This document shows, piece after piece, positions 1,306-22,086 of a DNA stretch of 63,286 bases. Each line of letters opens with the position of its first letter. Position 1 is the stretch's first letter. Under the pieces are notes generated by a model. The model did not search any database. It had not been told where the DNA came from and saw only the letters and a list, made by a program, of their open reading frames with translations. A program made the translations under genes and the position numbers. This stretch comes from Candidatus Bipolaricaulis sp. (GTDB lineage Bacteria; Bipolaricaulota; Bipolaricaulia; UBA7950; UBA9294): positions 1 to 63,286 of the forward strand of contig JAQTNX010000002.1 of assembly GCA_028713635.1 (NCBI GenBank), given 5' to 3'.

Positions 1306-2454
1306 GTGAACGAGCGGAGCGCGGACGCACAGAGACGGAAGCCTCAGGTCGAGCGGAGCGCAAGCACGAAGGGCGTCGACCAAGTGGGCGTGGATCGCTG
1401 CTCGGCGATCGCATACGCCCACGCGCAGAGCACGTTCGACGCTCTCCGTGGGCGGAGCGGGCTGAGAATCGAAGGCGACGAAGAGAGCTTCGCCAACGTC
1501 GTCCGAATCGGAGACGTGCGCGTCGCGGTGACGTCCGACGGGATCGGCACGAAGCTCGAGATTGCAGAACGCGTCGGGCGTTTCGACACCCTGGGATTGG
1601 ACCTTCTCGCCATGGTCCTCGATGACCTCGCCGCCATCGGCGCCGAGCCCGTCGCCGTGTCGAACATCATCGACGCGGATCGGCTCGACGAGGCGACGAT
1701 CGACGCGATGATGTCGGGCCTCGCGCGCGCCGCGCGGGAGTGCGGCGTCGCCGTGACCGGAGGGGAGATCGCCGCCCTCGGCAGACGCGTTGGAGGATGG
1801 GGCGACGGTCCCCACGTCAACTGGTGCGCGACGGCGATCGGGGTGATCCCCGGAGAGCGGCCGGCTCTCTGCGGCCACGATCTCGGCGTCGGAGACGAGA
1901 TCGTCGCCCTTCGGAGTGCGGGCCTGCGCAGCAACGGGTTCACGCTCGCAAGGAAGGTCCTCGAGCGAGCCTTCGGCGACGCGTGGCACACCGCGCTTCA
2001 CGAGGGAACCCCGTGGGGCGATCTCCTTCTCACTCCGTCGCTGATCTATGCGCCCTCCGTGATGAGCGCGCTCGCCGCGGGCGTTCCGATCCGAGGTGTG
2101 GCCCACATCACGGGAGGCGGGATCCCCGGAAACTTGCCCCGCGTGCTCCGCGCCACGGGACTCGGCGCGAGGCTTGATGCTCTCTGGCCTCCGCACGACT
2201 GGGTTCTCCGTCTCGTCGAGCTCGGCGGGCTGTCGGCGCGTGAAGCGTACGGCGAGTGGAACATGGGAAACGGGATGCTCGCCGTCGTCCCCGCCGGGCG
2301 TGGCGAGGAGCTCGTTCGTGCGCTCGCAGCCCACGGCAGGAATGCGCGGGTCGCGGGAAGGATCGTCCCTCTGGGAGGCATCACGATCGATGCCCACGCC
2401 TGGGATCTGGGGACGATTCGGTTCGCGGCGGACGACGAGGACGGCGATGCCTGA
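1306..2454 (+). CDS. purM: Phosphoribosylformylglycinamidine cyclo-ligase (AIR synthase)
   Basis: TSDGIGTK, DLLAMVLDDL, GGEIA, LRSAGLRSNGFTL, AHITGGG, WNMGNG motifs. GTG start with GGAGG RBS. Confidence 0.93.
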   Translation: MNERSADAQRRKPQVERSASTKGVDQVGVDRCSAIAYAHAQSTFDALRGRSGLRIEGDEESFANVVRIGDVRVAVTSDGIGTKLEIAERVGRFDTLGLDLLAMVLDDLAAIGAEPVAVSNIIDADRLDEATIDAMMSGLARAARECGVAVTGGEIAALGRRVGGWGDGPHVNWCATAIGVIPGERPALCGHDLGVGDEIVALRSAGLRSNGFTLARKVLERAFGDAWHTALHEGTPWGDLLLTPSLIYAPSVMSALAAGVPIRGVAHITGGGIPGNLPRVLRATGLGARLDALWPPHDWVLRLVELGGLSAREAYGEWNMGNGMLAVVPAGRGEELVRALAAHGRNARVAGRIVPLGGITIDAHAWDLGTIRFAADDEDGDA

Positions 2455-5446
2455 GACCTGGACGCACCTCTACGTGTCCTCTCGCCCCGACCGCGGCGCC
2501 GACCCGATCGGCGAGCGGGTGCGCCGCCAGGCCGCCGACTTCCTCTCGATCGACACCGGGCGAGTGGCGACATCGAAGGTCTACTCGGTGTCCCCGGCGC
2601 TCGACGCCGCAAGGATCGAGCGGGCGCAGGCCGCGCTTGGAAACCGGGTCTCGTGCGTCGTGGGCGTCGGATCCCCTGCGTGCAAGGGGTTTCGGTCGTT
2701 CATCTCGGTCGACAAGCGACCAGGCGTCACGGACGACGAAGGCCGGGCGCTCCTCACCGTCCTTTGCGACCTCTTCCCCAGCTCGCCGGAGATCGCCTCC
2801 GGTCGGGCGACGTCGCGCGACGTGTACTGGTTGGAGCAGACGCTCTCCCCTACGGATCTCGGGCGTATCGCCGAGGAACTCGTCGGGAACCCTCTCGTTC
2901 ACGTTCTCCGATCGGGACCAGCCGACGCCTACGAGGATCCGCGGCCCCGTGCGGCGGCGGCGACGCGATCGGTGATCGAGGAGATCGTGCTCCCACGCGA
3001 CGCCGCCGGCCTCCTTCGGCTCTCGGAGACGCGGCTTCTCTCGCTCGATCAAGTCGAGATGGAGGCCGTGCGCGACTACTACGACCGCGAGGCGGTGCGG
3101 GCGAGCCGCCGTCTGCGCGGTCTCCCTGGGGATCCGACGGACTGCGAGCTCGAGGCCATTGCCCAGACGTGGTCTGAGCACTGCAAGCATAAGGAGTTCA
3201 GCGCGCTCGTGAAGTTCGTCGACCGCGACCGCGGGACGACGGTGGAGATCGACTCTCTCTTTCGTACGTACATCGTGGCCGCGACGCGGGCCGTCCACGA
3301 AGTGCTCCGTGGGTGGGGACAGGACTGGCTGTTGAGCGTGTTCGACGACAATGCCGGCGTCGTTCGCATTGACGATGACCGCGTCTTCGTTTGGAAAGTG
3401 GAGACCCACAACAGCCCGTCGGCCATCGACCCCTACGGGGGCGCCATCACGGGAATCCTCGGCTGCAACCGAGATCCGCTCGGGACGGGACGAGGAGGCG
3501 GACGTCTCCTCTTCAACACCGACGTCCTCTGCTTTGCGCCGCCGACCTACGACCGTCCGCTCCTTCGCGGGCAGTTGGCGCCCCGGCGCGTCTTCGCCGG
3601 CGTGCGCGCGGGGATCGAGGACGGGGGAAACAAGTCGGGAATCCCGACGGTGAACGGGGCGCTCGTGTTCGACGACCGCTTCGCGGGGAAGCCGCTCGTC
3701 TTCTGCGGGTCCGGCTCGATCGCCCCGGCGCGGGTGGGGGACGATCCGTGGTGGGAGAAGCGGATCGACCCGGGCGACCGAATCGTGGTCATCGGGGGCC
3801 GCGTCGGCAAGGACGGAATCCACGGTGCGACCTTCTCGTCCGTTCACCTGGACGAGGAGTCGCCCCGCTCGGCCGTTCAGATTGGCAGTCCACTGACGCA
3901 GAAGCTCGCGAGCGACTTCCTCGAGGAGGCCGGCGCGCGAGGGTGGGTCAAGGCGGCCACCGACAACGGAGCCGGCGGGCTCTCGTCGTCCGTGGGCGAA
4001 CTCGCCCGCATCCCCGGCGGCGCGGAAGTCGACCTTGAGCGGGTGCCGCTCAAGTATGAGGGGATCCAGCCGTGGGAGATCTTCCTCTCCGAAGCGCAGG
4101 AGCGGATGACGCTCGCCGTCGACCCGGCCGTGGAGAGCGAGCTTCTTTCGTTGGCGAGGGACCGAGGCGTCGAAGCTGTCGACATCGGGCGGTTCACTGC
4201 GGACGGAGTGCTGTGGGTACGGCACGCGGGGCGCACGGCGGCGTGTCTTGACCTCGATTTCCTCCATCACGGCACGCCGCGGAAACGCCTCGAGGCGGAG
4301 TGGGCGGCTCCGGCGTCCGAAGTACCGGCGATCCCCGACGTCGATCTCGAAGCCGCGCTCCTCGGCGTCCTGGGGGGATGGAACGTCTGCTCCCGCGAAG
4401 GTGTCATCCGGCAGTACGACCACGAAGTGAAGGGGCGCACCGTGGTGAAGCCGCTCATGGGCCGCGGCCACGGCCCGCAGGACGCCGGTGTCCTGCGTCT
4501 GTCGTGGTCCGACTACCGTGGAATTGCCGTGTCGAATGGGATCGTTCCTCGGTACGGGGATCTCGATCCCTACGCGATGTGCGCGTGCGCGTTCGACGAG
4601 GCGGTGCGCGGGATCGTCGCGGTCGGCGGTCGACTGCCGGGACCGGACACTGCCGCACCGCAGTTCTGGTCGGTGAACGACAACTTCTGCCTCCCGAACG
4701 TGGCCCACGACGCGCGAACGAACCCGGAGGGCCGCCGCCGACTCGGTGCGCTGGTCCGAATGTGCCAGGCCCTCTACGACATGGCCGTAGCCTATGCCGT
4801 GCCGCTCACATCCGGCAAGGACAGCATGAAGAACGACTTCACCGTGGGGAAGGTGACGATCTCGGTCCCGCCGACCGTCCTCTTCTCGGCGGCGGCGGGG
4901 ATTCCCGATGTGCGAAGGACCGTCACGAGCGGATTCCAGGCCGCGGGGGACGTGATCTACGCGGTCGGCGAGACCCTCGACGAGTTGGGGGCCTCGGAGT
5001 TCTTCCGCTGGCTGGGACTGGCCGGCGGACGGGCGCCGCGGGTGAGAGCGGAGCGGGCCCGCGAGCGATACCGACGCGTCAACGATGCGATCTCCGCAGG
5101 CCTGGTGGCGTCGTGCCACGATCTTTCCGACGGGGGGCTTGCGGTGGCGCTCGTGGAGTCTGCGATCGGGGGCGGGCTGGGCTTCGACGTCGCACTCGAC
5201 GACCTCGGGCAATTCGACCAACCCTCGGTCCCGCTCTTCTCCGAGACGGCGTCGAGGTTCGTGGTGACGGTGCCCGAGGAAAGGCGGCGTGCGTTCGAAG
5301 TGATTCTGGGCGTGGACGCGCGGTCGATCGGGCGCGTCACGGGCGAGGCGCACGTTCGGATCTCGATGGGTGGCCGGCCCTGCATCGACGGTCCGCTGGC
5401 GAGGTTTGAGACGGCGTGGCGCGGCGGTCTTGGGGGGTACGGATGA
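2447..5446 (+). CDS. purL: FGAM synthase PurL with fused N-terminal PurS-like region (999 aa)
   Basis: WSEHCKHK, KVETHNSPS, DGIHGATFSS, DNGAGG, SEAQERM, SGKDS, HDLSDGG motifs. The N-terminus has DPIG and RPGVTDDEG PurS-like motifs. Start overlaps the purM stop. Confidence 0.95.
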   Translation: MPETWTHLYVSSRPDRGADPIGERVRRQAADFLSIDTGRVATSKVYSVSPALDAARIERAQAALGNRVSCVVGVGSPACKGFRSFISVDKRPGVTDDEGRALLTVLCDLFPSSPEIASGRATSRDVYWLEQTLSPTDLGRIAEELVGNPLVHVLRSGPADAYEDPRPRAAAATRSVIEEIVLPRDAAGLLRLSETRLLSLDQVEMEAVRDYYDREAVRASRRLRGLPGDPTDCELEAIAQTWSEHCKHKEFSALVKFVDRDRGTTVEIDSLFRTYIVAATRAVHEVLRGWGQDWLLSVFDDNAGVVRIDDDRVFVWKVETHNSPSAIDPYGGAITGILGCNRDPLGTGRGGGRLLFNTDVLCFAPPTYDRPLLRGQLAPRRVFAGVRAGIEDGGNKSGIPTVNGALVFDDRFAGKPLVFCGSGSIAPARVGDDPWWEKRIDPGDRIVVIGGRVGKDGIHGATFSSVHLDEESPRSAVQIGSPLTQKLASDFLEEAGARGWVKAATDNGAGGLSSSVGELARIPGGAEVDLERVPLKYEGIQPWEIFLSEAQERMTLAVDPAVESELLSLARDRGVEAVDIGRFTADGVLWVRHAGRTAACLDLDFLHHGTPRKRLEAEWAAPASEVPAIPDVDLEAALLGVLGGWNVCSREGVIRQYDHEVKGRTVVKPLMGRGHGPQDAGVLRLSWSDYRGIAVSNGIVPRYGDLDPYAMCACAFDEAVRGIVAVGGRLPGPDTAAPQFWSVNDNFCLPNVAHDARTNPEGRRRLGALVRMCQALYDMAVAYAVPLTSGKDSMKNDFTVGKVTISVPPTVLFSAAAGIPDVRRTVTSGFQAAGDVIYAVGETLDELGASEFFRWLGLAGGRAPRVRAERARERYRRVNDAISAGLVASCHDLSDGGLAVALVESAIGGGLGFDVALDDLGQFDQPSVPLFSETASRFVVTVPEERRRAFEVILGVDARSIGRVTGEAHVRISMGGRPCIDGPLARFETAWRGGLGGYG

Positions 5447-6264
5447 GGATCGTGCAGGCGCTGGTCATTGCAGGGTTCGGGATCAACTGCGAGGACGAGA
5501 CGGCGGCCGCGTACCGCCTCGCCGGCGCGACCGCTCACACGGCGCACCTGGAAAGCGTGTTGCGAGGCGACGTTCGGCTCGACGCCTTCGACATCGTGCA
5601 CCTTCCCGGAGGCTTCTCCTTCGGCGACGACCTGGGCGCCGGCAGGGTCCTTGCGAACCGAATCCGAACGCGGCTGCTTCCAGGGGGAGCGACGATGGGC
5701 GACGGACTGCGCGCCGTGGCTCGCCGAGGCGGGATGGTGATCGGAATCTGCAACGGATTCCAGGCGCTCGTCGAGCTGGGCCTCGTCCCGAACGTTGGCG
5801 GGGAGGGCGCCGCGGAGGCGGCGCTCATGCAGAACGTCTCCGGCAGGTACGAAAACCGATGGGTTCGGGTTCGCGCCGACGCAGAGTGCCCGGCGCGCGT
5901 GTGGGCCGGGCTGGAAGACTGGGAGCTCCCCGTTCGGCACGGCCAAGGCCGGCTCGTGTTCCGCGACCCAGGGCTGCGAGACGAGGTCGCGCGGCTTCAC
6001 CTGAACGGCCTCACGTACTGCGACGGGGACGGTCGGCCGACGCGCGCCTACCCGGCGAATCCGAACGGCGCGGAGCTCGCGTGTGCCGCCTTGTGCGACC
6101 CGAGCGGCCGGATCCTCGGCGTGATGCCGCACCCCGAAGCGTACCTCTCCCTCTTCAACCACTACGACTGGCCGCGCCTCCGGCGGGAGTGTCCGGAGCG
6201 AAGCGAGGAAGGGAAAGGTCTGATGCTGTTCCGGAACGTCGTGAAGGCGGTCCTGGCGGCCTAG
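5443..6264 (+). CDS. purQ: FGAM synthase glutaminase subunit
   Basis: GFGINC, LPGGFSFGDDLGAG, GICNGFQ (catalytic Cys), MPHPE. ATGA overlap with purL. Confidence 0.95.
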   Translation: MRIVQALVIAGFGINCEDETAAAYRLAGATAHTAHLESVLRGDVRLDAFDIVHLPGGFSFGDDLGAGRVLANRIRTRLLPGGATMGDGLRAVARRGGMVIGICNGFQALVELGLVPNVGGEGAAEAALMQNVSGRYENRWVRVRADAECPARVWAGLEDWELPVRHGQGRLVFRDPGLRDEVARLHLNGLTYCDGDGRPTRAYPANPNGAELACAALCDPSGRILGVMPHPEAYLSLFNHYDWPRLRRECPERSEEGKGLMLFRNVVKAVLAA

Positions 6265-6307: not shown

Positions 6308-7921
6308 GTGGACTGGAAGATCCGACGGGCGTTGGTGAGCGTCTCGGACAAGACCGGCGTGGCGGACCTTGCGAGGGCGCTTCGTCGATGGAGCTGCGAC
6401 ATCATCTCAACCGGAGGCACCGGACAGGCGATGCGCGAGGCCGGGATCCCGGTGGTCGACATTGCGTCGGTGACGGGGAACCCCGAGGCGTTCGGGGGGC
6501 GGATGAAGACGATCTCGTTCGCCATCGAGTCGGCGATTCTCTTCGACCGCGAGCGCGACCGAGCCGAGGCCGAGCGTCTGGGGATCGGGCCCATCGACCT
6601 TGTCGTCTGCAACCTTTACCCGTTCCGGACGTACCGCGACGAGAAGGCGGAACTCGACCTTCTGATCGAACAGATCGACATCGGCGGCCCGACGATGATC
6701 CGGGCCGCGGCGAAGAACTATCGCTACGTCGCCGTCGTCTGCGATCCCGCGGACTACGGGGAGTTGATCGGGGAGCTGGAGACGCGCCAGGGGGCGCTGT
6801 CGCTCGAGACGCGGGCGCGGCTGATGCGGAAGGCGTTCAACCACACGGCGGACTACGACTCGATGATCGCTGAGGCGCTGGACGAGAGGTTCGGCGAGAC
6901 GTCGCTTCGATTGGCGTTCCACGGCGGGCGGACGCTGCGCTACGGGGAGAACGCGCACCAGGGCGCGGTCGTCCTGCGCGAACGGGGCGCCGCGGCGTCG
7001 CTCTACGACCTCGAGGTGCTTGGTGGGAAGGAGCTCTCCTACAACAACCTTGTGGACATCCACGCCGCGGCGGCTGCGGTACGGGACCTTGGAGCCGCCG
7101 CGTGCGCCGTGGTCAAGCACACGAACCCGTGCGGCCTCTGTCAGGCGCCCTCGGCGCGCGTCGCCCTCGAGACGGCGTGGCGATCCGACCCGGTGTCCGC
7201 GTTCGGTTCGGTGATTGCGTTCAACACGCGCGTCGACCGGACGGCGGTCGAGTTTCTCGCCCTGGATGCGGCGGACAAGTCGCAGCGGAAGTTCGTCGAG
7301 GTCGTTGTGGCTCCGGCGTTCGAGGAGGCTGCGGTCGAGTACCTACGGCAGAACGAGAACCTGCGGATCGTCCGTCTCGACGCGCAAGGACTGCGGCGTT
7401 CCCAGGAGGTCAAGCTCCTCGGCGGCGCGGCCCTCGTCCAGGACACGGACGGTGTCTTGCTTGAGAAACTCGAGGTCGTCTCGAAAGCGCGCCCGGACGG
7501 AGACCTCGGCGCGGGCGGCGCGCTTCGCCGGGTGATCGAGTTCGGGCTCGTGGCGGCGCGGCAGGTGAAGAGCAACGCGATCGTCATCGTGGCGGAGACC
7601 GGTGGGACGCTGCGCCTGCTCGGGATGGGGGCGGGCCAGCCGAATCGCGTGGTGTCGACCCGGCTTGCCGTGGAGCGGGCGCGCGCGACCCTCGCGGGCG
7701 AGGGCCTCGACGAGAAGGGGATCCGCGCCGCTCTTGGGCGTTCCGTGCTCGTCTCGGACGCGTTCTTCCCGTTCCCGGACAGCGTGGAGTGCGCGGCCGA
7801 CGCCGGCGTGCGCACGTTCGTCGAGCCGGGCGGATCGATCCGAGACCGCGAGGTCGTGGCGTGCGTCGACGCCCGCGGGATCTCGATGATCTTCACGGGA
7901 ATTCGGCACTTCCAGCACTAG
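6308..7921 (+). CDS. purH: Bifunctional AICAR transformylase / IMP cyclohydrolase
   Basis: RALVSVSDKTG, STGGT, IDIGGPTMIRAAAKN, LRYGENAHQ, KHTNPCG, SDAFFPF, GIRHFQH. Confidence 0.97.
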   Translation: MDWKIRRALVSVSDKTGVADLARALRRWSCDIISTGGTGQAMREAGIPVVDIASVTGNPEAFGGRMKTISFAIESAILFDRERDRAEAERLGIGPIDLVVCNLYPFRTYRDEKAELDLLIEQIDIGGPTMIRAAAKNYRYVAVVCDPADYGELIGELETRQGALSLETRARLMRKAFNHTADYDSMIAEALDERFGETSLRLAFHGGRTLRYGENAHQGAVVLRERGAAASLYDLEVLGGKELSYNNLVDIHAAAAAVRDLGAAACAVVKHTNPCGLCQAPSARVALETAWRSDPVSAFGSVIAFNTRVDRTAVEFLALDAADKSQRKFVEVVVAPAFEEAAVEYLRQNENLRIVRLDAQGLRRSQEVKLLGGAALVQDTDGVLLEKLEVVSKARPDGDLGAGGALRRVIEFGLVAARQVKSNAIVIVAETGGTLRLLGMGAGQPNRVVSTRLAVERARATLAGEGLDEKGIRAALGRSVLVSDAFFPFPDSVECAADAGVRTFVEPGGSIRDREVVACVDARGISMIFTGIRHFQH

Positions 7922-7930
7922 GAGGAGGGA

Positions 7931-9343
7931 ATGCAGACCGTTCGTCGGTTCTCGACGCCGCAGCTCGAGTGCGTCCATCGTGGCAAGGTGCGCGACAGCT
8001 TCCGCGTCGACGACGCCACGCGGCTGATCGTCGCCACGGACCGTCTCTCGGCGTTCGACCGCGTCCTCGACTGCTGCATCCCGGGAAAGGGCGCTGCACT
8101 GACGCGCCTCGCCTCGTTCTGGTTCGAGCGAACTCGCAATCGGGTTCCGAACCACTGGATCCGGACGGTCGGGGAGCGTGCGATGCTCGTTCGCGAAGCG
8201 CAGCCCCTCCTTGTGGAGATGGTCGTGCGCGCCTACCTGACTGGGTCGGCGTGGAGGGCGTACGCCGCGGGGGCGAGAAGCCTCTCCGGCGCCAAGCTCC
8301 CGGAAGGGCTTCTGAAGAACCAGCGCCTCGCGGCGCCGATCGTCACCCCGACGACGAAGGCGGCGAAGGACGAAGAGGTGACGCCGCAGGAGATCGTCGA
8401 GCGCGGGATCGCCTCGCGCGACGTCTATCGCCGCCTGGAGGAGGCAAGCCTCGCGTTGTTCGACGACGGGGCCCGTCACCTGCGCGAGAAGGGGGTGCTC
8501 CTTGTCGACACGAAGTACGAGTTTGGGCTGGTCGGCGACCAGGTCGTGCTGATCGACGAGATGCACACTCCGGACTCGTCCCGGTTCTGGCTTGCGGAGG
8601 AGTACGACCGCAACCCGGCGGGCGTCGAGGGCTGGGACAAGGAGATCGTCCGCACGTGGCTTCTCGCCGAAGAGGCGAAGGGGCGGCGCCCGACATCGCT
8701 GCCGGACGACGTGATCGCAGAGACGGCTCGCCGCTACCGCGAGATCTGCCGCCGCATCACGGGAGAGACGCCGGCGGCCGAGGGTGGTGAGCAGGATCTG
8801 GTTCGCGCCCTCGTCGACGCGGGTCTCCTGCGGGACGGCTTTGTGGCGATCGTGATGGGCTCGCCGGGAGACCGCGAGCATGCGGAGCGGATCGCCGCCG
8901 AGCTGCGGCCGTACGGAGTGGCGGTGCTCGTTCGGGTGGCGTCGGCGCATCGGACGCCCGACCGCGTCGCGGCGCTGGCGGCGGAACTAGAGGAGGCGGG
9001 AGAGCCCGGGGCCGTCATCGCCGTGGCCGGGCTGTCGAACGGTCTCGGCGGGGCGCTGGCGGCGAATCTGACGTTGCCGGTGATCAACTGCCCGCCGTTC
9101 AAGGACGTCGTCGACGCTCAGCTTCACATGAACTCGTCGCTCTTCATGCCGCCCCGTGTGCCCGCGGTGACGGTTCTCGGTCCGGAGAACGCGGCACAGG
9201 CCGCGCTCCGTGCCTTGGCGCTCCCGCGGATCCGAGAGGAGCTCCGCCGTGGAATCGAAGCGAACCGGCGGCGAATCGACGAGGCGGACCGGACGTGCCG
9301 CGCTGCGGGGCGCTCGGCGGGCGGCGAGGAGGCCGGATCGTGA
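7931..9343 (+). CDS. purC/purE: SAICAR synthetase-AIR carboxylase fusion (PurC-PurE class II, PAICS-like order)
   Basis: N-terminal GKVRD, TDRLSAFD, LVDTKYEFG, IDEMHTPDSSRFW. C-terminal IVMGSPGD, SAHRTP, AVAGLSNGLG, PVINCPP. Confidence 0.92.
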   Translation: MQTVRRFSTPQLECVHRGKVRDSFRVDDATRLIVATDRLSAFDRVLDCCIPGKGAALTRLASFWFERTRNRVPNHWIRTVGERAMLVREAQPLLVEMVVRAYLTGSAWRAYAAGARSLSGAKLPEGLLKNQRLAAPIVTPTTKAAKDEEVTPQEIVERGIASRDVYRRLEEASLALFDDGARHLREKGVLLVDTKYEFGLVGDQVVLIDEMHTPDSSRFWLAEEYDRNPAGVEGWDKEIVRTWLLAEEAKGRRPTSLPDDVIAETARRYREICRRITGETPAAEGGEQDLVRALVDAGLLRDGFVAIVMGSPGDREHAERIAAELRPYGVAVLVRVASAHRTPDRVAALAAELEEAGEPGAVIAVAGLSNGLGGALAANLTLPVINCPPFKDVVDAQLHMNSSLFMPPRVPAVTVLGPENAAQAALRALALPRIREELRRGIEANRRRIDEADRTCRAAGRSAGGEEAGS

Positions 9344-10578
9344 ACGTCGGCGTCCTCGGCTCCGGAGGGAGGGAACACGCGCTGGCGTGGAAGCTGGCGC
9401 AGAGCCCTCATGCCGAGTCCGTCGTCATCCTCCCCGGGAACGGAGGAACATCGCCGAACGTCACGGTCTGTCCGACCGACCCGGAGGACGTGGCGGCGGT
9501 GTGCGAGCGGCTGGATCTCGACCTCCTGGTCGTGGGCGGAGAGGAAGCGCTGGCGGCGGGTGTCGTCGATCGTCTCCAAGCGACGTCGACCCTGGCGTTC
9601 GGCCCGACGGCGGCGGCCACTCGGCTGGAGAGTTCGAAGCTGTGGGCGAAGCGGTTCATGGAGCGGCACGGTATCCCGAGCGCCGAGCACGCGGACGTTG
9701 GGTCGACGGCCGAGGTTCTGGCGGCGGCGGATCGGTGGGGCGGGCGCCTCGTCGTGAAAGCGGATGGGCTTGCGGCTGGAAAGGGAGTCGTCGTGTGCGA
9801 TTCCCCGGCCCGAGCGGGAGAGGCGTGGGAGGACGTACGGCGATCCCGCCCGGCGGGCGAACCCGTGTTCGTTGAGAGAGTCCTCGAGGGTTGGGAGGTC
9901 TCCGTGCTCTGCGTGACGGACGGTCGCGCATGCGCCCTCCTTCCCGCAGCGCAGGACCACAAGGCCGCGTACGACGGAGATCGCGGGCCGAACACCGGAG
10001 GGATGGGAGCCTTCGCCCCGGTGCCGGCGCTCGACACCGGGGTCCTCGAGGTCGTCCGGCGGACGATCCTCGAGCCGACCCTCGCCGGGCTGCGGTCGGA
10101 GGGGATCGCGTACTGCGGGTTCCTCTACCTTGGGCTGATGGTGACGAGCGATGGGCCGAAGGTCTTGGAGTACAACGCGCGACTTGGCGACCCGGAGGCC
10201 GAGGTCATTCTGCCGCTCCTTCGCGGCGACCTCCTCGACGTGATGCGCGCGTGCTGCAGGGGGGCGTGGAACGGGACGGGGCTCTCGGCGGCGGACGGAT
10301 TCGCTGTGGACGTCGTGCTGGCGTCGGGGGGGTACCCGGGCGCCTACGCGACGGGTCACGAAATCGTGGGGCTCGAGAGTGTCGAACCCGGGGTTCTTGT
10401 CTTCCACGGAGGAACTCGGCGCGCCGGGGACCGACTCCTGACGAGCGGCGGGCGCGTTCTCCACGTGGTTGCGCGCGGGGACGTCCTGACGGAGGCCGTC
10501 GACCGGGCGTACCGGAATGTTGCTCGGATCCGCTTCGCGGGGATGCATGCACGACGGGACATCGGACGGAGGCACTAG
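9340..10578 (+). CDS. purD: Phosphoribosylamine-glycine ligase
   Basis: VLGSGGREHAL, VVKADGLAAGKGV, QDHK, GPNTGGMG, EYNARLGDPE, SGGRVL. GTGA overlap with the upstream gene. Confidence 0.97.
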   Translation: MNVGVLGSGGREHALAWKLAQSPHAESVVILPGNGGTSPNVTVCPTDPEDVAAVCERLDLDLLVVGGEEALAAGVVDRLQATSTLAFGPTAAATRLESSKLWAKRFMERHGIPSAEHADVGSTAEVLAAADRWGGRLVVKADGLAAGKGVVVCDSPARAGEAWEDVRRSRPAGEPVFVERVLEGWEVSVLCVTDGRACALLPAAQDHKAAYDGDRGPNTGGMGAFAPVPALDTGVLEVVRRTILEPTLAGLRSEGIAYCGFLYLGLMVTSDGPKVLEYNARLGDPEAEVILPLLRGDLLDVMRACCRGAWNGTGLSAADGFAVDVVLASGGYPGAYATGHEIVGLESVEPGVLVFHGGTRRAGDRLLTSGGRVLHVVARGDVLTEAVDRAYRNVARIRFAGMHARRDIGRRH

Positions 10579-11202
10579 ATGCGGCGCGTCGCTGTCTTGA
10601 TCTCGGGCCGAGGGACGAACCTCGAGCGGATCGTCGCCGAAGTCCGAGACGGTTGCCTCTCCGGCGTCTGCGCCGTGGTCGTGGTCGTGTCGAACCGTCC
10701 GGAGGCCGGAGGTCTTGAGGTGGCCCGTCGCGCCGGCATTCCGACGCGCGTTGTCCCCTCGTCTGGTTTGGACGGCGAGGCGTACGGACGGCGGCTTCTT
10801 GAGGCACTCGGGCCGTGGAAGCTCGACGCCGTCGTTCTGGCTGGGTTCATGCGCGTCCTCTCGGCCGAGGTGGTCGAGCGGTTTCGGAACCGGATCGTCA
10901 ACATCCATCCGGCGGACACGGCCGAGTATCAGGGCATGGACGGCTACGGGTGGGCGTTCGAGCGCGGGCTGTCCGAAACGAAGGTCACCGTCCACCTCGT
11001 CGACGAAGGGGTGGACACGGGGCGGGTGCTGGCTCAGGAGACCGTGTCGCTGCAGGGCGCGACGACGCTCGACGACGTGAGGCGGCGCGGCCTCGACGTC
11101 GAGCACGACCTCTACAGCCGAGCGTTGCGACGGTGGTTCGAGAACGAGGGCCGATCGTGGGACGCGTCGACCGGCGGGAGGGCACCATGTGCGGAGTCCT
11201 AG
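10579..11202 (+). CDS. purN: Phosphoribosylglycinamide formyltransferase
   Basis: VAVLISGRGTNL, LAGFMRVL, NIHP, VHLVDEGVDTG. Confidence 0.95.
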   Translation: MRRVAVLISGRGTNLERIVAEVRDGCLSGVCAVVVVVSNRPEAGGLEVARRAGIPTRVVPSSGLDGEAYGRRLLEALGPWKLDAVVLAGFMRVLSAEVVERFRNRIVNIHPADTAEYQGMDGYGWAFERGLSETKVTVHLVDEGVDTGRVLAQETVSLQGATTLDDVRRRGLDVEHDLYSRALRRWFENEGRSWDASTGGRAPCAES

Positions 11203-12617
11203 GGATCTGGGGACGCTCGGAGGTGGCCGCCGACCTGATGTTCGGCCTGACGACGCTGCAACATCGCGGCCAGGACGCCGCGGGCGCCATCACGTTCGAT
11301 GGCTCGTTCCACGTCAAGATCGGTCGGGGACTCGTCAGCCGCGTGTTCGAAGACCGCCACCAAGAGCGGCTGCGCGGGACATGGGGCCTCGGTCACGTCC
11401 GCTATGCGACGATGGGGTCGACCGACGTCGAGGACGCCCAGCCCGTGCACGTCAACTACCCGTACGGGCTCGCCATGGTCCACAACGGCAACGTCGTCAA
11501 CTTCGCGGAGGTGCGCGAGAACCTCTACACCGAGCACCACCGACTCGTGGACACGTCGAACGACGTAGCCCTGATCCTGTACACGTTCGCTGCGGTGTTG
11601 GAACGGCGGAACCTTCGGGCCCTGACGGTCGATGACCTGTTCTCGTGCGTTGATGCTACGCGGCGGGCGATTCACGGCGCGTACGCCGTCATCTGTCTGA
11701 TCGCCGGGCGCGGACTCCTGGCGTTCTGTGATCCTCACGGAATCCGGCCGATGGTCCTCGGCGTCCGCCGGACTTCCAAAGGACCGGAGTACGCGATCGC
11801 CTCGGAGACGACGTGCCTCGACTACCTCGGATTCGAGGTCGAGGGAGAGATCGGCGCGGGAGAAGCCGTGTTCATCGACGCCTCGGGCACCGTACATCGC
11901 CACCGGGGCCCCGCAGAGAAGCCCGCGTTCTGCGTGTTTGAGTACATCTACTTTGCCCGCGAGGACTCGGTGCTCCGAGGGAGGGTGGTTGCGGCGGAAC
12001 GAGAGCGCATGGGGCGTGCGCTCGCCGACGTCGTCCGCCGCGCGGAGCTTCGGCCCGACGTGGTCATCGATGTGCCGGCGTCGGGATTCCTGTTCGCTTC
12101 GAGCATGGCGCAGGCGCTCGGGGTTCCCTTCCGGCGCGGCCTCGCGAAGAACCACCACATCGGGCGAAGCTTCATCCTGCCGACCGACGAGGAGCGCCGC
12201 CGAATGGTGCGCCTGAAGCTGAACCCGATCCGCGGGGTCCTCGAGGGGCAGCGGGTGGCGGTCGTCGATGATTCGATCGTTCGGGGAACGACCTCGCGCC
12301 GGCTGGTCGAGCTTCTGCGCAGCGCCGGAGCGCGAGAAGTCTACGTGATCAGCGCCGCTCCGCCGGTGACCTGCCCGTGCGTTTACGGGATCGACATGTC
12401 GACGACGGGGGAGATCATTGCGGCGAACCGAACAGTCGACGACGTCTGTCGCATGATCGGAGCCGACGCCGTCGTCTATCAGGATCTCTCCGTGCTCCGA
12501 TCGCTCTACGGGGAGGTCTCGTGCTGCGACGCGTGCTTCTCGGGTGAGTATCCCACGCACGTTGATCGCGAAGCGCTCGACGGTATCCGTCGGGAGAAAG
12601 AAGGCGCCGGGCGGTGA
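11187..12617 (+). CDS. purF: Amidophosphoribosyltransferase
   Basis: N-terminal MCG nucleophile, LQHRGQDAAG, HNGN, CVFEYIYFAR, VVDDSIVRGTT, CVYGIDM, C-terminal Fe-S cysteines (CCDAC). Confidence 0.97.
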   Translation: MCGVLGIWGRSEVAADLMFGLTTLQHRGQDAAGAITFDGSFHVKIGRGLVSRVFEDRHQERLRGTWGLGHVRYATMGSTDVEDAQPVHVNYPYGLAMVHNGNVVNFAEVRENLYTEHHRLVDTSNDVALILYTFAAVLERRNLRALTVDDLFSCVDATRRAIHGAYAVICLIAGRGLLAFCDPHGIRPMVLGVRRTSKGPEYAIASETTCLDYLGFEVEGEIGAGEAVFIDASGTVHRHRGPAEKPAFCVFEYIYFAREDSVLRGRVVAAERERMGRALADVVRRAELRPDVVIDVPASGFLFASSMAQALGVPFRRGLAKNHHIGRSFILPTDEERRRMVRLKLNPIRGVLEGQRVAVVDDSIVRGTTSRRLVELLRSAGAREVYVISAAPPVTCPCVYGIDMSTTGEIIAANRTVDDVCRMIGADAVVYQDLSVLRSLYGEVSCCDACFSGEYPTHVDREALDGIRREKEGAGR

Positions 12618-12816: not shown

Positions 12817-13623
12817 CTAGAGAATCGCCTCGATCATCTCGCCGATCAGATCGATCGGGTGGCCGACGTAGCGGATGACGCCCTGGCGGTCGATCACGAA
12901 GGTGCACGGGATGCCGACGTCCGTGCCGTCGAGGTCGTACAGCTCCGTGAGGGGGCTTCTACTCTTGCCGCCGGGTTCCCAGACCGAGAGGAACGCGTCG
13001 TACCCGCCGTTCTCGAGGAAGTCGATCGACGTCTGCTCTGCGGCGTCCGTGCTCACAACGATGACCACGACGCCCTCGTCGGCGTAGTCGCGGGCGAGCT
13101 CGTCAAGGTGAGGCATGCTGATCCGGCACGGCGCGCACCATGCCCCCCAGAAGTCGAGGAGGACGACCTCTCCGCGGTGGTCGTAGAGGGTGAGCGATCC
13201 ACCGTCCGTCGTGTGGGCCGTGAAATTGGGGGCGGTGTCACCGACGGACGTTCCGACGGGCGGTCCGCTCTCATCCGCTGTGATCGTCAAGGTGTCGGAA
13301 TCCTGCCTGCCGCGGCTGTCCGTCAGGATCAGCACAGCGGCGTAGGTTCCGGCGTCGTATGTGTGGTGCACGATGACGCCGAGATCCGAGCCCACGGACG
13401 ACGGTGAGCCGTCGCCGAAGTCGAGCTCGTACGTCGCAGCCCCATCTTCGTCGCAGACCGAGTACGACAGGTCGAACGCGACGTCGAGCGGCGCGGCGCC
13501 GGTGATGACCGCCGCGGTCAGCACCGCGATCGGCTCCTCCCGGCTTGTGCACCCCGTGAGCGCGGCGGCCACAAGGGCAAGGCCGAGGCCCCGCCGGGCG
13601 CAACGAACGAGACGGCTATCCAT
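12817..13623 (-). CDS. Lipoprotein with PKD domain and TlpA-like thioredoxin domain (WCAPC)
   Basis: Lipobox ALTG-C. PKD pattern APLDVAFD...DFGDG...HHTYDAGTYAAVLILTD. LLDFWGAWCAPC and FVIDRQGVIRY. Confidence 0.85.
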   Translation of the reverse strand: MDSRLVRCARRGLGLALVAAALTGCTSREEPIAVLTAAVITGAAPLDVAFDLSYSVCDEDGAATYELDFGDGSPSSVGSDLGVIVHHTYDAGTYAAVLILTDSRGRQDSDTLTITADESGPPVGTSVGDTAPNFTAHTTDGGSLTLYDHRGEVVLLDFWGAWCAPCRISMPHLDELARDYADEGVVVIVVSTDAAEQTSIDFLENGGYDAFLSVWEPGGKSRSPLTELYDLDGTDVGIPCTFVIDRQGVIRYVGHPIDLIGEMIEAIL

Positions 13624-13800
13624 GGGCCGAGCATGACCGGCGTCCGGGGGAAGAACAATGGCGCCTGGGCAGCGACGGTCCGACACATCTCCCGTCTCCC
13701 GAGGACGCAGGCGTCTTTCGACTCAGTGGGACCCAGGGGGCTGCACGACCGGTCGTCTGTCCGAGTCCGCCGCCAGCGACTGCACGCCGGGCCGGCGTTG

Positions 13801-19103: not shown

Positions 19104-19730
19104 ATGTCCGATCGAACGCGCCGTACCGCAAGGTGGGTCGTCGCCGTCGTGATTGTCGCGACGGTCGCTCTGGGATGCTCCGCTCGGCCGAAGATCGCCG
19201 TGTTCCTGCAGGCTGCGGCGGCCGTGCCGACGGCGGACTTGGAGATCCTCAGGAACTACGCCAGTCAGCGCTGCTCGGTCGTGGCCGGGTGCGACGTCAA
19301 CACTCAGGGGGACTTGATGCTCGCCCAGCGCCTGACGGGGTCGTACGTCGGCAACAGCATGACGGTCGAAGGCATGCAGCGCCTCGCCGAGGCGCTGAAC
19401 GCGGACCATGTGGTCATCCTTCGGATTATCCAGTGGGAAAGCCAGATCTCGTACCGACCCGAACGATCCCTCGTCCTCTTGGGAGCGACATCGTTCCTCG
19501 ACACCACGCTGCAGATCCTCATTTCGCCGCTGGGTCTTCTGTTCGGAATCGACAAGGTCGCGACGGTGGGAATGTTCGTGTCCGTGTTCAGCCCGAAGGG
19601 CGATGTCGAGTTCACCACGTCGGTGACATGCGAGGACCGTCCGCTGTTCTCGCTTCTCACCGCGGACCCCGTGGAAGCCGCGAAGGATGCGATTGATGCA
19701 GCTCTCTACCAGGTCACTGTGGCACTGTAA
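19104..19730 (+). CDS. Lipoprotein, possible CsgG/LpoB/TolB-N-like fold
   Basis: Signal with VALG-C lipobox. MQRLAEALNADHVVILRI resembles the TolB-N/CsgG core. Internal hydrophobic stretch. Confidence 0.65.
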   Translation: MSDRTRRTARWVVAVVIVATVALGCSARPKIAVFLQAAAAVPTADLEILRNYASQRCSVVAGCDVNTQGDLMLAQRLTGSYVGNSMTVEGMQRLAEALNADHVVILRIIQWESQISYRPERSLVLLGATSFLDTTLQILISPLGLLFGIDKVATVGMFVSVFSPKGDVEFTTSVTCEDRPLFSLLTADPVEAAKDAIDAALYQVTVAL

Positions 19731-19869
19731 TGAAGATAGAAACCGGGAAGGAGGAGGATTGAAGCGTAATCGGTGTTACAGACTCCCGGGGGGAGGATCT
19801 GCTAGAGTGATGTTGCATTCCTGCTTTGAACACGAAGAGAAGATGAAAACGCCGACAAAGGAGGTAGCA

Positions 19870-22086
19870 ATGAAGGTGCGAAAGGGCAGTATTCTTAGCC
19901 TTTTCCTCCTTCTGGCGGTGGTCGTTCTCCTACTTCCGACGACGGGCTTGGCACAGGGAGACGGCTTCTACACTGTCAGTCAAGGGGAAACGCAAGTGCA
20001 GATCGAACCGCTGGCCAACGCAGCGGGCGCGGTCGCGTTCTACAAGATGACGAACATGCAGTCAGCGACAGGGCTTGAGAAGCCCAACACCGCGATTGTG
20101 TTCCTGTATCAGGACACCACGGGGGGCGTCGTCTCGCTGTTCGTCATTCTGGGTGCCGCGACCGGCACAGCGGGGTCGACGACGATGACTCTGTCCGGGG
20201 TTCCGGCGGGCGCAAGCTTCCTCGTCAAGGACGACGGAAGCGACTTCCGCGATACGTGGCAACTCACGCCGCCCACGGGCAGCATCTCGTGGACGTGGGA
20301 CCAGGGACGCGGCGACGGCATGGTGCTCGGGCCTCTTGGCACCGAGTTCTCGGTCACACTGTTCCCGCAGTTCTCAGCCGGCATCACCAGGGTTGTCTTC
20401 CTGTCCGGGAGCCTCGCGAGCCCCACGGAAGTCACGCTGAACCTGCTGGATCCGATCATTGTGGCGGGCACGCCGAACGAGCCGCCGCAGGTCGGGTTCA
20501 CGGTCTCTCCGTCGAATCCGCGTATCAACCAGCCGGTCACGTTCGACGCATCCTCGTCATTCGACCCGGACGGCCGGATTGACAAGTATGAGTGGGACTT
20601 CAACGGCGACGGCCTGTTCGACTCGACGACCACGGAGCCTACGGTCAGCTACACGTACGCGGCGAGCGGCGCAAAGAGCGTCACGGTCCGCGCGACGGAC
20701 AACGAGGGTGCGACGGCGCGGTCGACGCTGAGCGTGTCGATCGGAGACCTCGCGGTGAAGGTCACTCGAACGATCTCCACGTCGGCGGCGCTGCCCGGAA
20801 GCACGTTCCTGGTCGTCGTGCGCATGGAGCCGCAGATGGACGTCGCCGGCGTGGGTCTTCAGGAGAACCTGCCCGTGGGCTGGAAGATCAAGCCACTCGA
20901 GAACGCAGGTGCCGCGTTCAAGCGCGCGTCGGTTCAGTGGGTGTTCGTCGACCAGATTCGGGGAGGATCGACGAAGATCATCTCGTACGAGCTCACGGTG
21001 CCGCCGAGCGACCAGCTGATCGCGACGACGCTCCCCGTGTGCTTCACGCTGACGGGGACGTTCCAGGCGATGACGCCGTTCATGGAGCTGCCGGTCGAGG
21101 GAGACGCGAAGATCGAGGTCTCCACCGCTCTGCCTCTGAAGGAAGCCATCGCTCACCTCGTTCCTCGTGTCGGCCTGGACACGGAGGACACGATCGATTT
21201 GCGGCTGTCGCAGAAGATCGACCCTCAGCAGCTCAAGAGGGCGCTCGAGATGTGGCAGAACGACGAGGTCGTGCCGTGGACTCAAGGCTCGACGATCAGC
21301 CTCGAGCAGATGAAGGAGCTCTCGGCGTACGCGTACACGTGCACGCCGGTCGACCTGCCCCTGCCGCTCGTGCCGCCGGCCCGCATCTCGGCCGTCCGCA
21401 CGATCGCGACCCCGGTGCCGTGCAACAACGTCCTGCTCAACTACTACGGGCCGGGCGGCGACAAGGCGGGAAGCACCTTCACCGTGAAGGTTGAGATTTG
21501 GGCAGACCAGGACCTCTACGGCGTTGGTCTCAAGGAGGAGCTGCCGACGGGGTGGAAGGTCATTCCGATCGAGAATGACGGGCTCACCTACAAGCGCTCC
21601 CGCAACGAGTGGGTATGGCCTACGAAGCTCCCGGCCGGAGTGACGAAGACCATCATCTACCAAGTCGAGGTTCCGCAGACCGAGATGATCGAGATGGCCG
21701 CCAGCGATCCGTGCTACGCGAGCAGCAACGATCTCTACGGTGTGGTGGACTCGGCTCTGCCCTGCATGGAGGTGCCGGTTACCGGCGACAGCGGCGTCGA
21801 CGTCAGCGATTGTCTGTCCGTCCTTGTGGCGATTTCCCGCTGGGATGTGGACCACGATCGGCTCGACATTACCCTTTCCGACAGGATCTCGTTCCAGCAA
21901 GTTCAGCGGGCCATCGCCTTCTGGTTGGAGGACGAAGAGGTTCCGTGGACATGCGGCGAGACGGTTGGGTACCACATGCTGAAGGAGATCATCGCCTACT
22001 GGCTCACGGGGACGAACATCTGCGATCCACTTCCCGTGATCCCCGACGGCCCGTGTGATCCGAGCGCCTCGGTGTGCGGCGGGTAG
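19870..22086 (+). CDS. Secreted PKD protein with two tandem (cohesin-like beta-domain + helical module) units
   Basis: GGAGGT RBS. Signal peptide MKVRK...TGLA. PKD pattern FDASSSFDPDG...YEWDFNGDG. Internal repeat GVGLxExLPxGWK and ...VPWT...AY. Confidence 0.85.
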   Translation: MKVRKGSILSLFLLLAVVVLLLPTTGLAQGDGFYTVSQGETQVQIEPLANAAGAVAFYKMTNMQSATGLEKPNTAIVFLYQDTTGGVVSLFVILGAATGTAGSTTMTLSGVPAGASFLVKDDGSDFRDTWQLTPPTGSISWTWDQGRGDGMVLGPLGTEFSVTLFPQFSAGITRVVFLSGSLASPTEVTLNLLDPIIVAGTPNEPPQVGFTVSPSNPRINQPVTFDASSSFDPDGRIDKYEWDFNGDGLFDSTTTEPTVSYTYAASGAKSVTVRATDNEGATARSTLSVSIGDLAVKVTRTISTSAALPGSTFLVVVRMEPQMDVAGVGLQENLPVGWKIKPLENAGAAFKRASVQWVFVDQIRGGSTKIISYELTVPPSDQLIATTLPVCFTLTGTFQAMTPFMELPVEGDAKIEVSTALPLKEAIAHLVPRVGLDTEDTIDLRLSQKIDPQQLKRALEMWQNDEVVPWTQGSTISLEQMKELSAYAYTCTPVDLPLPLVPPARISAVRTIATPVPCNNVLLNYYGPGGDKAGSTFTVKVEIWADQDLYGVGLKEELPTGWKVIPIENDGLTYKRSRNEWVWPTKLPAGVTKTIIYQVEVPQTEMIEMAASDPCYASSNDLYGVVDSALPCMEVPVTGDSGVDVSDCLSVLVAISRWDVDHDRLDITLSDRISFQQVQRAIAFWLEDEEVPWTCGETVGYHMLKEIIAYWLTGTNICDPLPVIPDGPCDPSASVCGG

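Follow-up and report, generated by a model that had tools for sequence, protein, structure and literature searches.

PAICS, which joins two steps of purine synthesis in one polypeptide, is usually presented as an animal speciality. In animal PAICS (human 2H31 and 6YB8, and 4JA0 from Bombyx mori) a PurC domain is N-terminal and a class II PurE domain is C-terminal. Among other described proteins that resemble one half or the other are the class II PurE of Treponema denticola (3RG8/3RGG), yeast Ade1 (1A48/2CNQ), the PurC of M. abscessus (3R9R/6YVQ) and the class I PurE of E. coli, which requires the ATP-using PurK. The PurK/class I route, usually presented as the microbial rule, has become a target of antimicrobial projects (PMC10484210).

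We have analysed a stretch of 63,286 nucleotides (the window) from a Candidatus Bipolaricaulis genome that contains a purC-purE fusion gene. This gene very probably encodes a PurK-independent bifunctional AIR carboxylase / SAICAR synthetase that belongs to a monophyletic bacterial fusion family, most likely independent of PAICS. Evidence from sequence, phylogeny and comparative genomics gives good support to this functional reading, and from it we infer the enzyme activities. The gene sits where it would be expected within a tightly packed purine operon that has the order purM, purL, purQ, purH, purC-E, purD, purN, purF. The features discussed below are as follows:

1306 to 2454, forward strand: purM (Pfam AIRS and AIRS_C).
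2456 to 5446, forward strand: purL, start approximate (TIGR01736 aligns from residue 345 of an ORF beginning at 2096).
5416 to 6264, forward strand: purQ (Pfam GATase_5, 6.6e-69).
6308 to 7921, forward strand: purH (Pfam AICARFT_IMPCHas and MGS).
7922 to 7930, forward strand: GGAGGAGGG, Shine-Dalgarno-like, read from the sequence in the gap that separates the purH stop from the ATG start codon at 7931.
7931 to 9343, forward strand: purC-purE fusion gene, an uninterrupted ORF of 470 aa plus stop (Pfam SAICAR_synt and AIRC).
7931 to 8785, forward strand: PurC half, residues 1-285, a long SAICAR synthetase of Ade1/mycobacterial type (NF010568, PDB matches, fold).
8786 to 8842, forward strand: short linker, residues 286-304 (alignment, and DSSP on the model).
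8843 to 9295, forward strand: PurE half, residues 305-455, class II type (Pfam AIRC, PDB matches, motifs, tree).
9340 to 10578, forward strand: purD (TIGR00877, 437 bits, full length).
10579 to 11202, forward strand: purN (Pfam Formyl_trans_N).
11200 to 12617, forward strand: purF, start approximate (Pfam GATase_6/7 and Pribosyltran in an ORF at 10815-12617).

A sequence-only reading of this DNA had described a single ORF in which PurC is followed by PurE. Indeed, the 470-aa frame is free of stops and holds both Pfam domains, SAICAR_synt (residues 15-249, E 2.3e-63) and AIRC (residues 305-440, E 3.5e-33). All of the motifs that had been quoted are found: the PurC half contains TPDSSRFW, the PurE half AVAGLSNGLG and PVINCPP. 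The source is a draft MAG, and at one locus from a Hymenobacter MAG (L016) the two halves appear in different frames, so one could suppose that an assembly or frameshift error has joined two adjacent genes. Such an error has next to no probability given that the same single frame recurs in independent assemblies, where proteins of 82-94% identity (P0002-P0006) contain both domains, as well as in more than 100 further homologues and in isolate genomes. In a collection of 5.8 billion proteins, both Pfam domains were present in 120 of the 120 best matches (51-94% identity). The linker is also conserved, with the pattern L..G(L/I)..DG, and an AlphaFold2 monomer model built from a 30-sequence alignment (mean pLDDT 91.7, pTM 0.87) predicts it to be short and structured, with a helix at residues 287-296 and pLDDT of 85-97 in this region. 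Because independent assemblies and all 120 best homologues keep the two domains together, the fused frame does not stem from faulty assembly.

The translation signals on both sides of the gene are compact. The purH stop (TAG, 7919-7921) lies directly upstream of GGAGGAGGG, and at the other end the stop of purC-E and the GTG that starts purD overlap within GTGA, with a GAGGAGG ribosome-binding site for purD located inside the purC-E tail. Given the overlap and the internal ribosome-binding site, purC-E and purD are translationally coupled. Elsewhere in the operon, the purF domains start near residue 187 of the ORF at 10815-12617, and purL carries an N-terminal extension of ~225 aa (2456-3130, forward strand) ahead of the FGAR-AT linker. 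Pfam matched nothing in this unassigned extension at E <= 1, PurS included, and a genome-wide search detected no stand-alone purS. Beyond the operon lie ileS and purA, and purB is found on another contig of the same genome. The ileS-purA pair is flanked by two PKD-domain proteins (12817-13686, reverse strand, and 19687-22086, forward strand), one of which also contains a fused AhpC/TSA-thioredoxin-like domain.

The source genome comprises 2.30 Mb in 213 contigs and is 88% complete. Contamination by a foreign contig was considered and rejected using IleS, the gene of which is located 0.6 kb past the operon's neighbour. This protein is 85% identical to that of a genome from the same genus and 57-73% identical, over full-length or near-full-length matches, to those of genomes from the same family. 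The contig is native to the genome. De novo purine genes are patchy in the source genome's family (G000, G033-G096), with PurC, PurE and PurH each detected in 6 of its 31 sampled genomes. In one genome of the same genus (G088, 85% complete) PurC, PurE and PurH were all undetected; its ileS lies 1.4 kb from a contig end and the purine operon may simply be unassembled.

The PurE half had been assigned to class II on the strength of its motifs, an assignment that was upheld when other enzymes were brought into the comparison. Its best match among PDB sequences is the T. denticola class II PurE (1.9e-22), with human PAICS at 8.3e-21 (human and Bombyx PAICS are both about 1e-20) and the E. coli class I PurE at 1.2e-11. 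The key sites are the P-loop GSPGD at residues 310-314, SAH340R, AGLSNGLG at 366-373 and PVINCPP at 383-389, of which GSPGD and S338-A339-H340 are invariant among 30 aligned family members. The catalytic His of PurE, which is universally conserved and essential (PMC9376930), is H340 in this protein. A motif table of the aligned domains shows the fusion with a 70s loop of AGLSNGLG and with CPP, whereas a class I set that includes E. coli, M. jannaschii and others has AG(G/L)AAHLPG and PVIGVP. In the same table PAICS has AGRSNGLG and PVI[SN]CPP, and T. denticola PurE has AGRSNALS and IACPP. A careful PurE tree of 90 rows splits class I from class II with 100/100 support and places the domain inside the class II clade, not with class I. 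The class II enzymes that have been characterised, namely T. denticola PurE and PAICS, sit in a subclade that is sister to that of the query. We know of no enzyme from the query's own class II PurE subclade that has been assayed.

The absence of purK had also been noted from the sequence, and the gene proved to be missing from the operon and from the remainder of the 2.3-Mb, 88%-complete genome, where the best scores to the purK model (TIGR01161) were 33.8 and 27.3 bits against a cut-off of 318. These two weak purK-like matches were identified as D-Ala-D-Ala ligase (Ddl) and biotin carboxylase (AccC) and were rejected. The source genome also has no second PurE domain, leaving the fusion with the sole one. 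A purK could lie in the missing part of the genome. We therefore turn to other genomes, 18 of which were reached via the loci identified here. Among these, 7 of the 8 other genomes that bear the fusion lack purK, as do all 5 genomes that have an unfused class II purE beside purC. Three PurC-only Hymenobacter and one Caldilineaceae genome with a class I purE do have purK, as does an Opitutales MAG that bears the fusion. A sample of 61 genomes from the source phylum contained 6 fusion-bearing and 6 purK-bearing genomes, with an overlap of 0.

Class II motifs, placement in the class II clade, the missing purK and this distribution all point to a PurK-independent function. We propose that the protein would carry out purine steps 6 and 7 as a single bifunctional enzyme. 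Its C-terminal domain, a class II PurE, would convert AIR and CO2 directly to CAIR without ATP and without N5-CAIR, a direct carboxylation that would leave PurK unneeded, and the N-terminal long-type PurC would then use ATP to form SAICAR from CAIR and aspartate. The gene would be translated within a purM-L-Q-H-(C-E)-D-N-F operon and be coupled to purD. We further conjecture a putative hand-over of substrate between the PurC and PurE sites.

One could instead suppose that the PurE domain follows class I chemistry as an N5-CAIR mutase and that, in a habitat rich in CO2, its substrate N5-CAIR forms non-enzymatically from CO2 and AIR, which would make PurK dispensable on other grounds. There is precedent for such chemistry as E. 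coli PurE functions without PurK at high bicarbonate, and organisms that lack PurK and have a class I-like PurE have been discussed for archaea (PMC3261824). The motif around the catalytic His is also of the class I form in that SAHR replaces the usual class II SAHK in the fusion gene and its closest relatives. A third point comes from a 1.0-Mb MAG in which we found no purK and which encodes a 528-aa protein that combines a long-type PurC with a class I PurE (L049, 7911-9494; motifs AGGAAHLPG and PVIGIP). This protein is a further, separate PurC-PurE fusion. We nevertheless consider the mutase explanation very unlikely for the Bipolaricaulota protein, as its 70s loop and CPP are of class II type and the class II clade that contains it has 100/100 support. 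Moreover, most of the family has SAHK (25 of the 30 aligned members), and SAHR also occurs in several other representatives of the class II clade, where it is a minority form. Direct carboxylation by a class II domain would thus be the better account of how this organism might reach CAIR.

The cultured genus Hymenobacter provides a closer look at the relationship between the class II domain and purK. Among 81 Hymenobacter genomes, which are related and so do not give phylogenetically independent counts, purK stands alone in 42, the class II domain stands alone in 24, the two occur together in 13 and both are missing from 2. Expressed differently, a fused class II domain is present in 24 of the 26 genomes that lack purK. 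The loci are syntenic on both sides with the PurE-coding part cleanly present or absent, as seen when L005 (8001-9416) is compared with L017, L020 and L015 (8001-~8930; genomes G002 and G097-G176), and the PurC-only loci are missing exactly the ~0.5-0.6 kb that codes for the PurE domain. A few copies look decayed, such as one with an in-frame TAG (G114) and two that are partial (G099, G138). The PurC tree nests the PurC-only genes of Hymenobacter among Hymenobacter fusions (99%) and within the fusion family (96%), apart from other Bacteroidota PurC. This nesting indicates that Hymenobacter likely acquired the fused gene and that either the domain or purK was lost thereafter. Since 13 Hymenobacter genomes and the Opitutales MAG carry both, the routes from AIR to CAIR via the class II domain and via purK can coexist.

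Additional observations were made in this genus. Three Hymenobacter genomes (G009, G010 and G002; loci L086, L087 and L089) have a second, class I-like PurE paralogue that does not adjoin purK, and such a paralogue is kept in H. jeongseonensis despite its missing purK. A fusion from a MAG labelled Janthinobacterium lividum (L006) groups tightly inside Hymenobacter and its label looks unreliable. Hymenobacter amounts to a natural experiment in cultured bacteria, in which some genomes have the class II domain at one locus and others lack it, its presence tracking the loss of purK. This comparison is the most useful product of our analysis, since it allows the hypothesis that the domain replaces PurK to be tested in strains that are already in culture.

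The PurC half had been likened to the long yeast ADE1 type and not to the PAICS type, and this distinction is borne out by searches of PDB sequences in which yeast Ade1 (1.1e-54) and M. abscessus PurC (8.4e-46) are far stronger matches than E. coli PurC (3.5e-6) or the PurC part of PAICS from Bombyx (1.4e-3) and human (3.3e-2). Among NCBIfam models, the PurC half passed the cut-off of NF010568 (258.8 bits against 251) and fell below that of NF009251 (306.5 bits against 371). The ATP-, CAIR- and Asp-binding motifs (GKVRD, ATDRLSAFD, KYEFG, DE and TPDSSRFW) are invariant in the PurC halves of 30 aligned family members. In a PurC tree of 105 rows, built by a quick method, PAICS-type PurC is split from all long-type PurC with 100% support and a branch length of 3.67. 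The long-type clade, which is likewise 100% supported, takes in every bacterial fusion together with yeast Ade1.

The sequence-only reading had treated this gene as a special case, a view that does not hold as the family spans many bacterial phyla and includes cultured Hymenobacter. A scan of GTDB species genomes together with named records provided fused relatives labelled Bipolaricaulota, Atribacteria, Cloacimonadota, Calditrichota, Chlorobiota, Bacteroidetes, Opitutales, Deltaproteobacteria and Hymenobacter, and the isolate H. jeongseonensis BT683 carries the fused gene. The nearest named protein to that of the source genome is labelled Bipolaricaulota. One genome labelled Atribacteria (L004) is placed in the source genome's own family, and this label looks unreliable. 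The gene is thus unremarkable within a bacterial family that is widely distributed and already in databases, and is only modestly new. Current database names for the family ("SAICAR synthase", "AIR carboxylase family protein", "fusion protein PurCD") are uninformative for annotation and the last of these is wrong. A full-text literature search returned no description of a bacterial family of PurC-class II PurE fusions, although subscription papers may mention the fusion.

These genes also occur in other layouts. The GTDB scan found unfused pairs of purC and class II purE in Peregrinibacteria/Peribacteria, Anaerolineae, Thermaceae and two proteobacterial MAGs, as well as purC beside a class I purE in Caldilineaceae, Anaerolineae and archaea. 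An exhaustive search of representative proteins with the PurE half alone returned true animal PAICS and also proteins of 600-650 aa with the arrangement PurN-PurC-PurE(II). These triple fusions include P0196, P0205, P0191, P0215, P0227 and others, with P0205 corresponding to a UniRef entry designated "viral metagenome" (A0A6C0CKA9). Another protein, of 525 aa, has the reversed order PurE-PurC (P0186). The reversed order, the union of PurC with a class I PurE and the PurN-PurC-PurE layout together indicate that fusion of PurC with PurE is easy and recurrent.

The bacterial fusion had been proposed to have originated independently of PAICS, and our results support this proposal short of proof. 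The PurE tree recovers the query's PurE family as monophyletic (100/99) and PAICS PurE as monophyletic (98/89). PAICS PurE falls in a subclade with T. denticola PurE and verified unfused genes (96/92), and the query's family falls in another with other bacterial fusions and unfused CPR genes (97/88). That the two groups occur in different PurE subclades, both of which contain unfused members, speaks for separate fusion events. Forcing the query family and PAICS PurE together, however, cost 34 log-likelihood units and gave p-AU 0.097, such that a joint clade was not rejected in this test, for which the group had been chosen after a first tree was seen.

A single ancestral PurC-PurE(II) fusion could in principle underlie both groups, or one group could have donated its class II PurE half to the other, for instance a bacterium of this kind to animals, with PurC swapped later in either case; the shared layout would then not be convergent. 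In addition to the result of the AU test, this scenario draws on the presence of SNGLG and PVI[SN]CPP in both groups, as SNALS and PVIACPP prevail among unfused class II PurEs. We regard shared ancestry of this kind as improbable in view of the deep split between the PurC subfamilies, with PDB E-values of about 1e-54 against 1e-3, the separate placement of the two PurE groups in the unconstrained tree and the additional independent layouts. It is probable that the fusion arose independently of animal PAICS, a conclusion drawn chiefly from the PurC half and from how readily such fusions evidently form.

A bacterial family of this size that joins the same two steps with another type of PurC provides an independent test case for why these steps fuse, be it the lability of CAIR, channelling or stoichiometry. 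It is also a caution that PurK and class I PurE are not universal in bacteria.

Animal PAICS has the same domain order and catalyses the same two reactions as those predicted for the fusion, and the two have SNGLG and PVI[SN]CPP in common. They differ in that PAICS uses another PurC subfamily and another class II PurE subclade, whereas the fusion has a bacterial host and is encoded by a gene within an operon. In a Foldseek search with the whole model, human PAICS ranks first (E 2.8e-29) with an rmsd of 24 A to 6yb8, even though the individual halves superimpose on their counterparts at about 2.2-2.4 A each. The inter-domain packing of the monomer model is thus not PAICS-like, which as a prediction neither proves nor disproves an octamer. 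The T. denticola PurE is the best sequence and fold match to the PurE half (TM 0.87, rmsd 2.1-2.2 A to 3RG8) and has class II motifs in common with it, and its PurK-independent chemistry is presumably shared. In contrast to the fusion, it is a stand-alone protein of 159 aa with SNALS and IACPP and belongs to the other class II subclade. E. coli PurE shares the PurE fold, the catalytic His and the AIR to CAIR step with the fusion, but has AGGAAHLPG and GVP and depends on PurK, features that are absent from both the fusion and its genome. For the PurC half, the closest likeness is to Ade1 and M. abscessus PurC (33-39% identity, TM 0.83-0.84), with a TM of 0.84 and an rmsd of 2.4 A when the model is aligned to Ade1 2cnq. 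The long-type SAICAR synthetases (NF010568/NF009251) are single-domain proteins, to which the bacterial fusion adds a PurE domain after a linker of ~20 residues.
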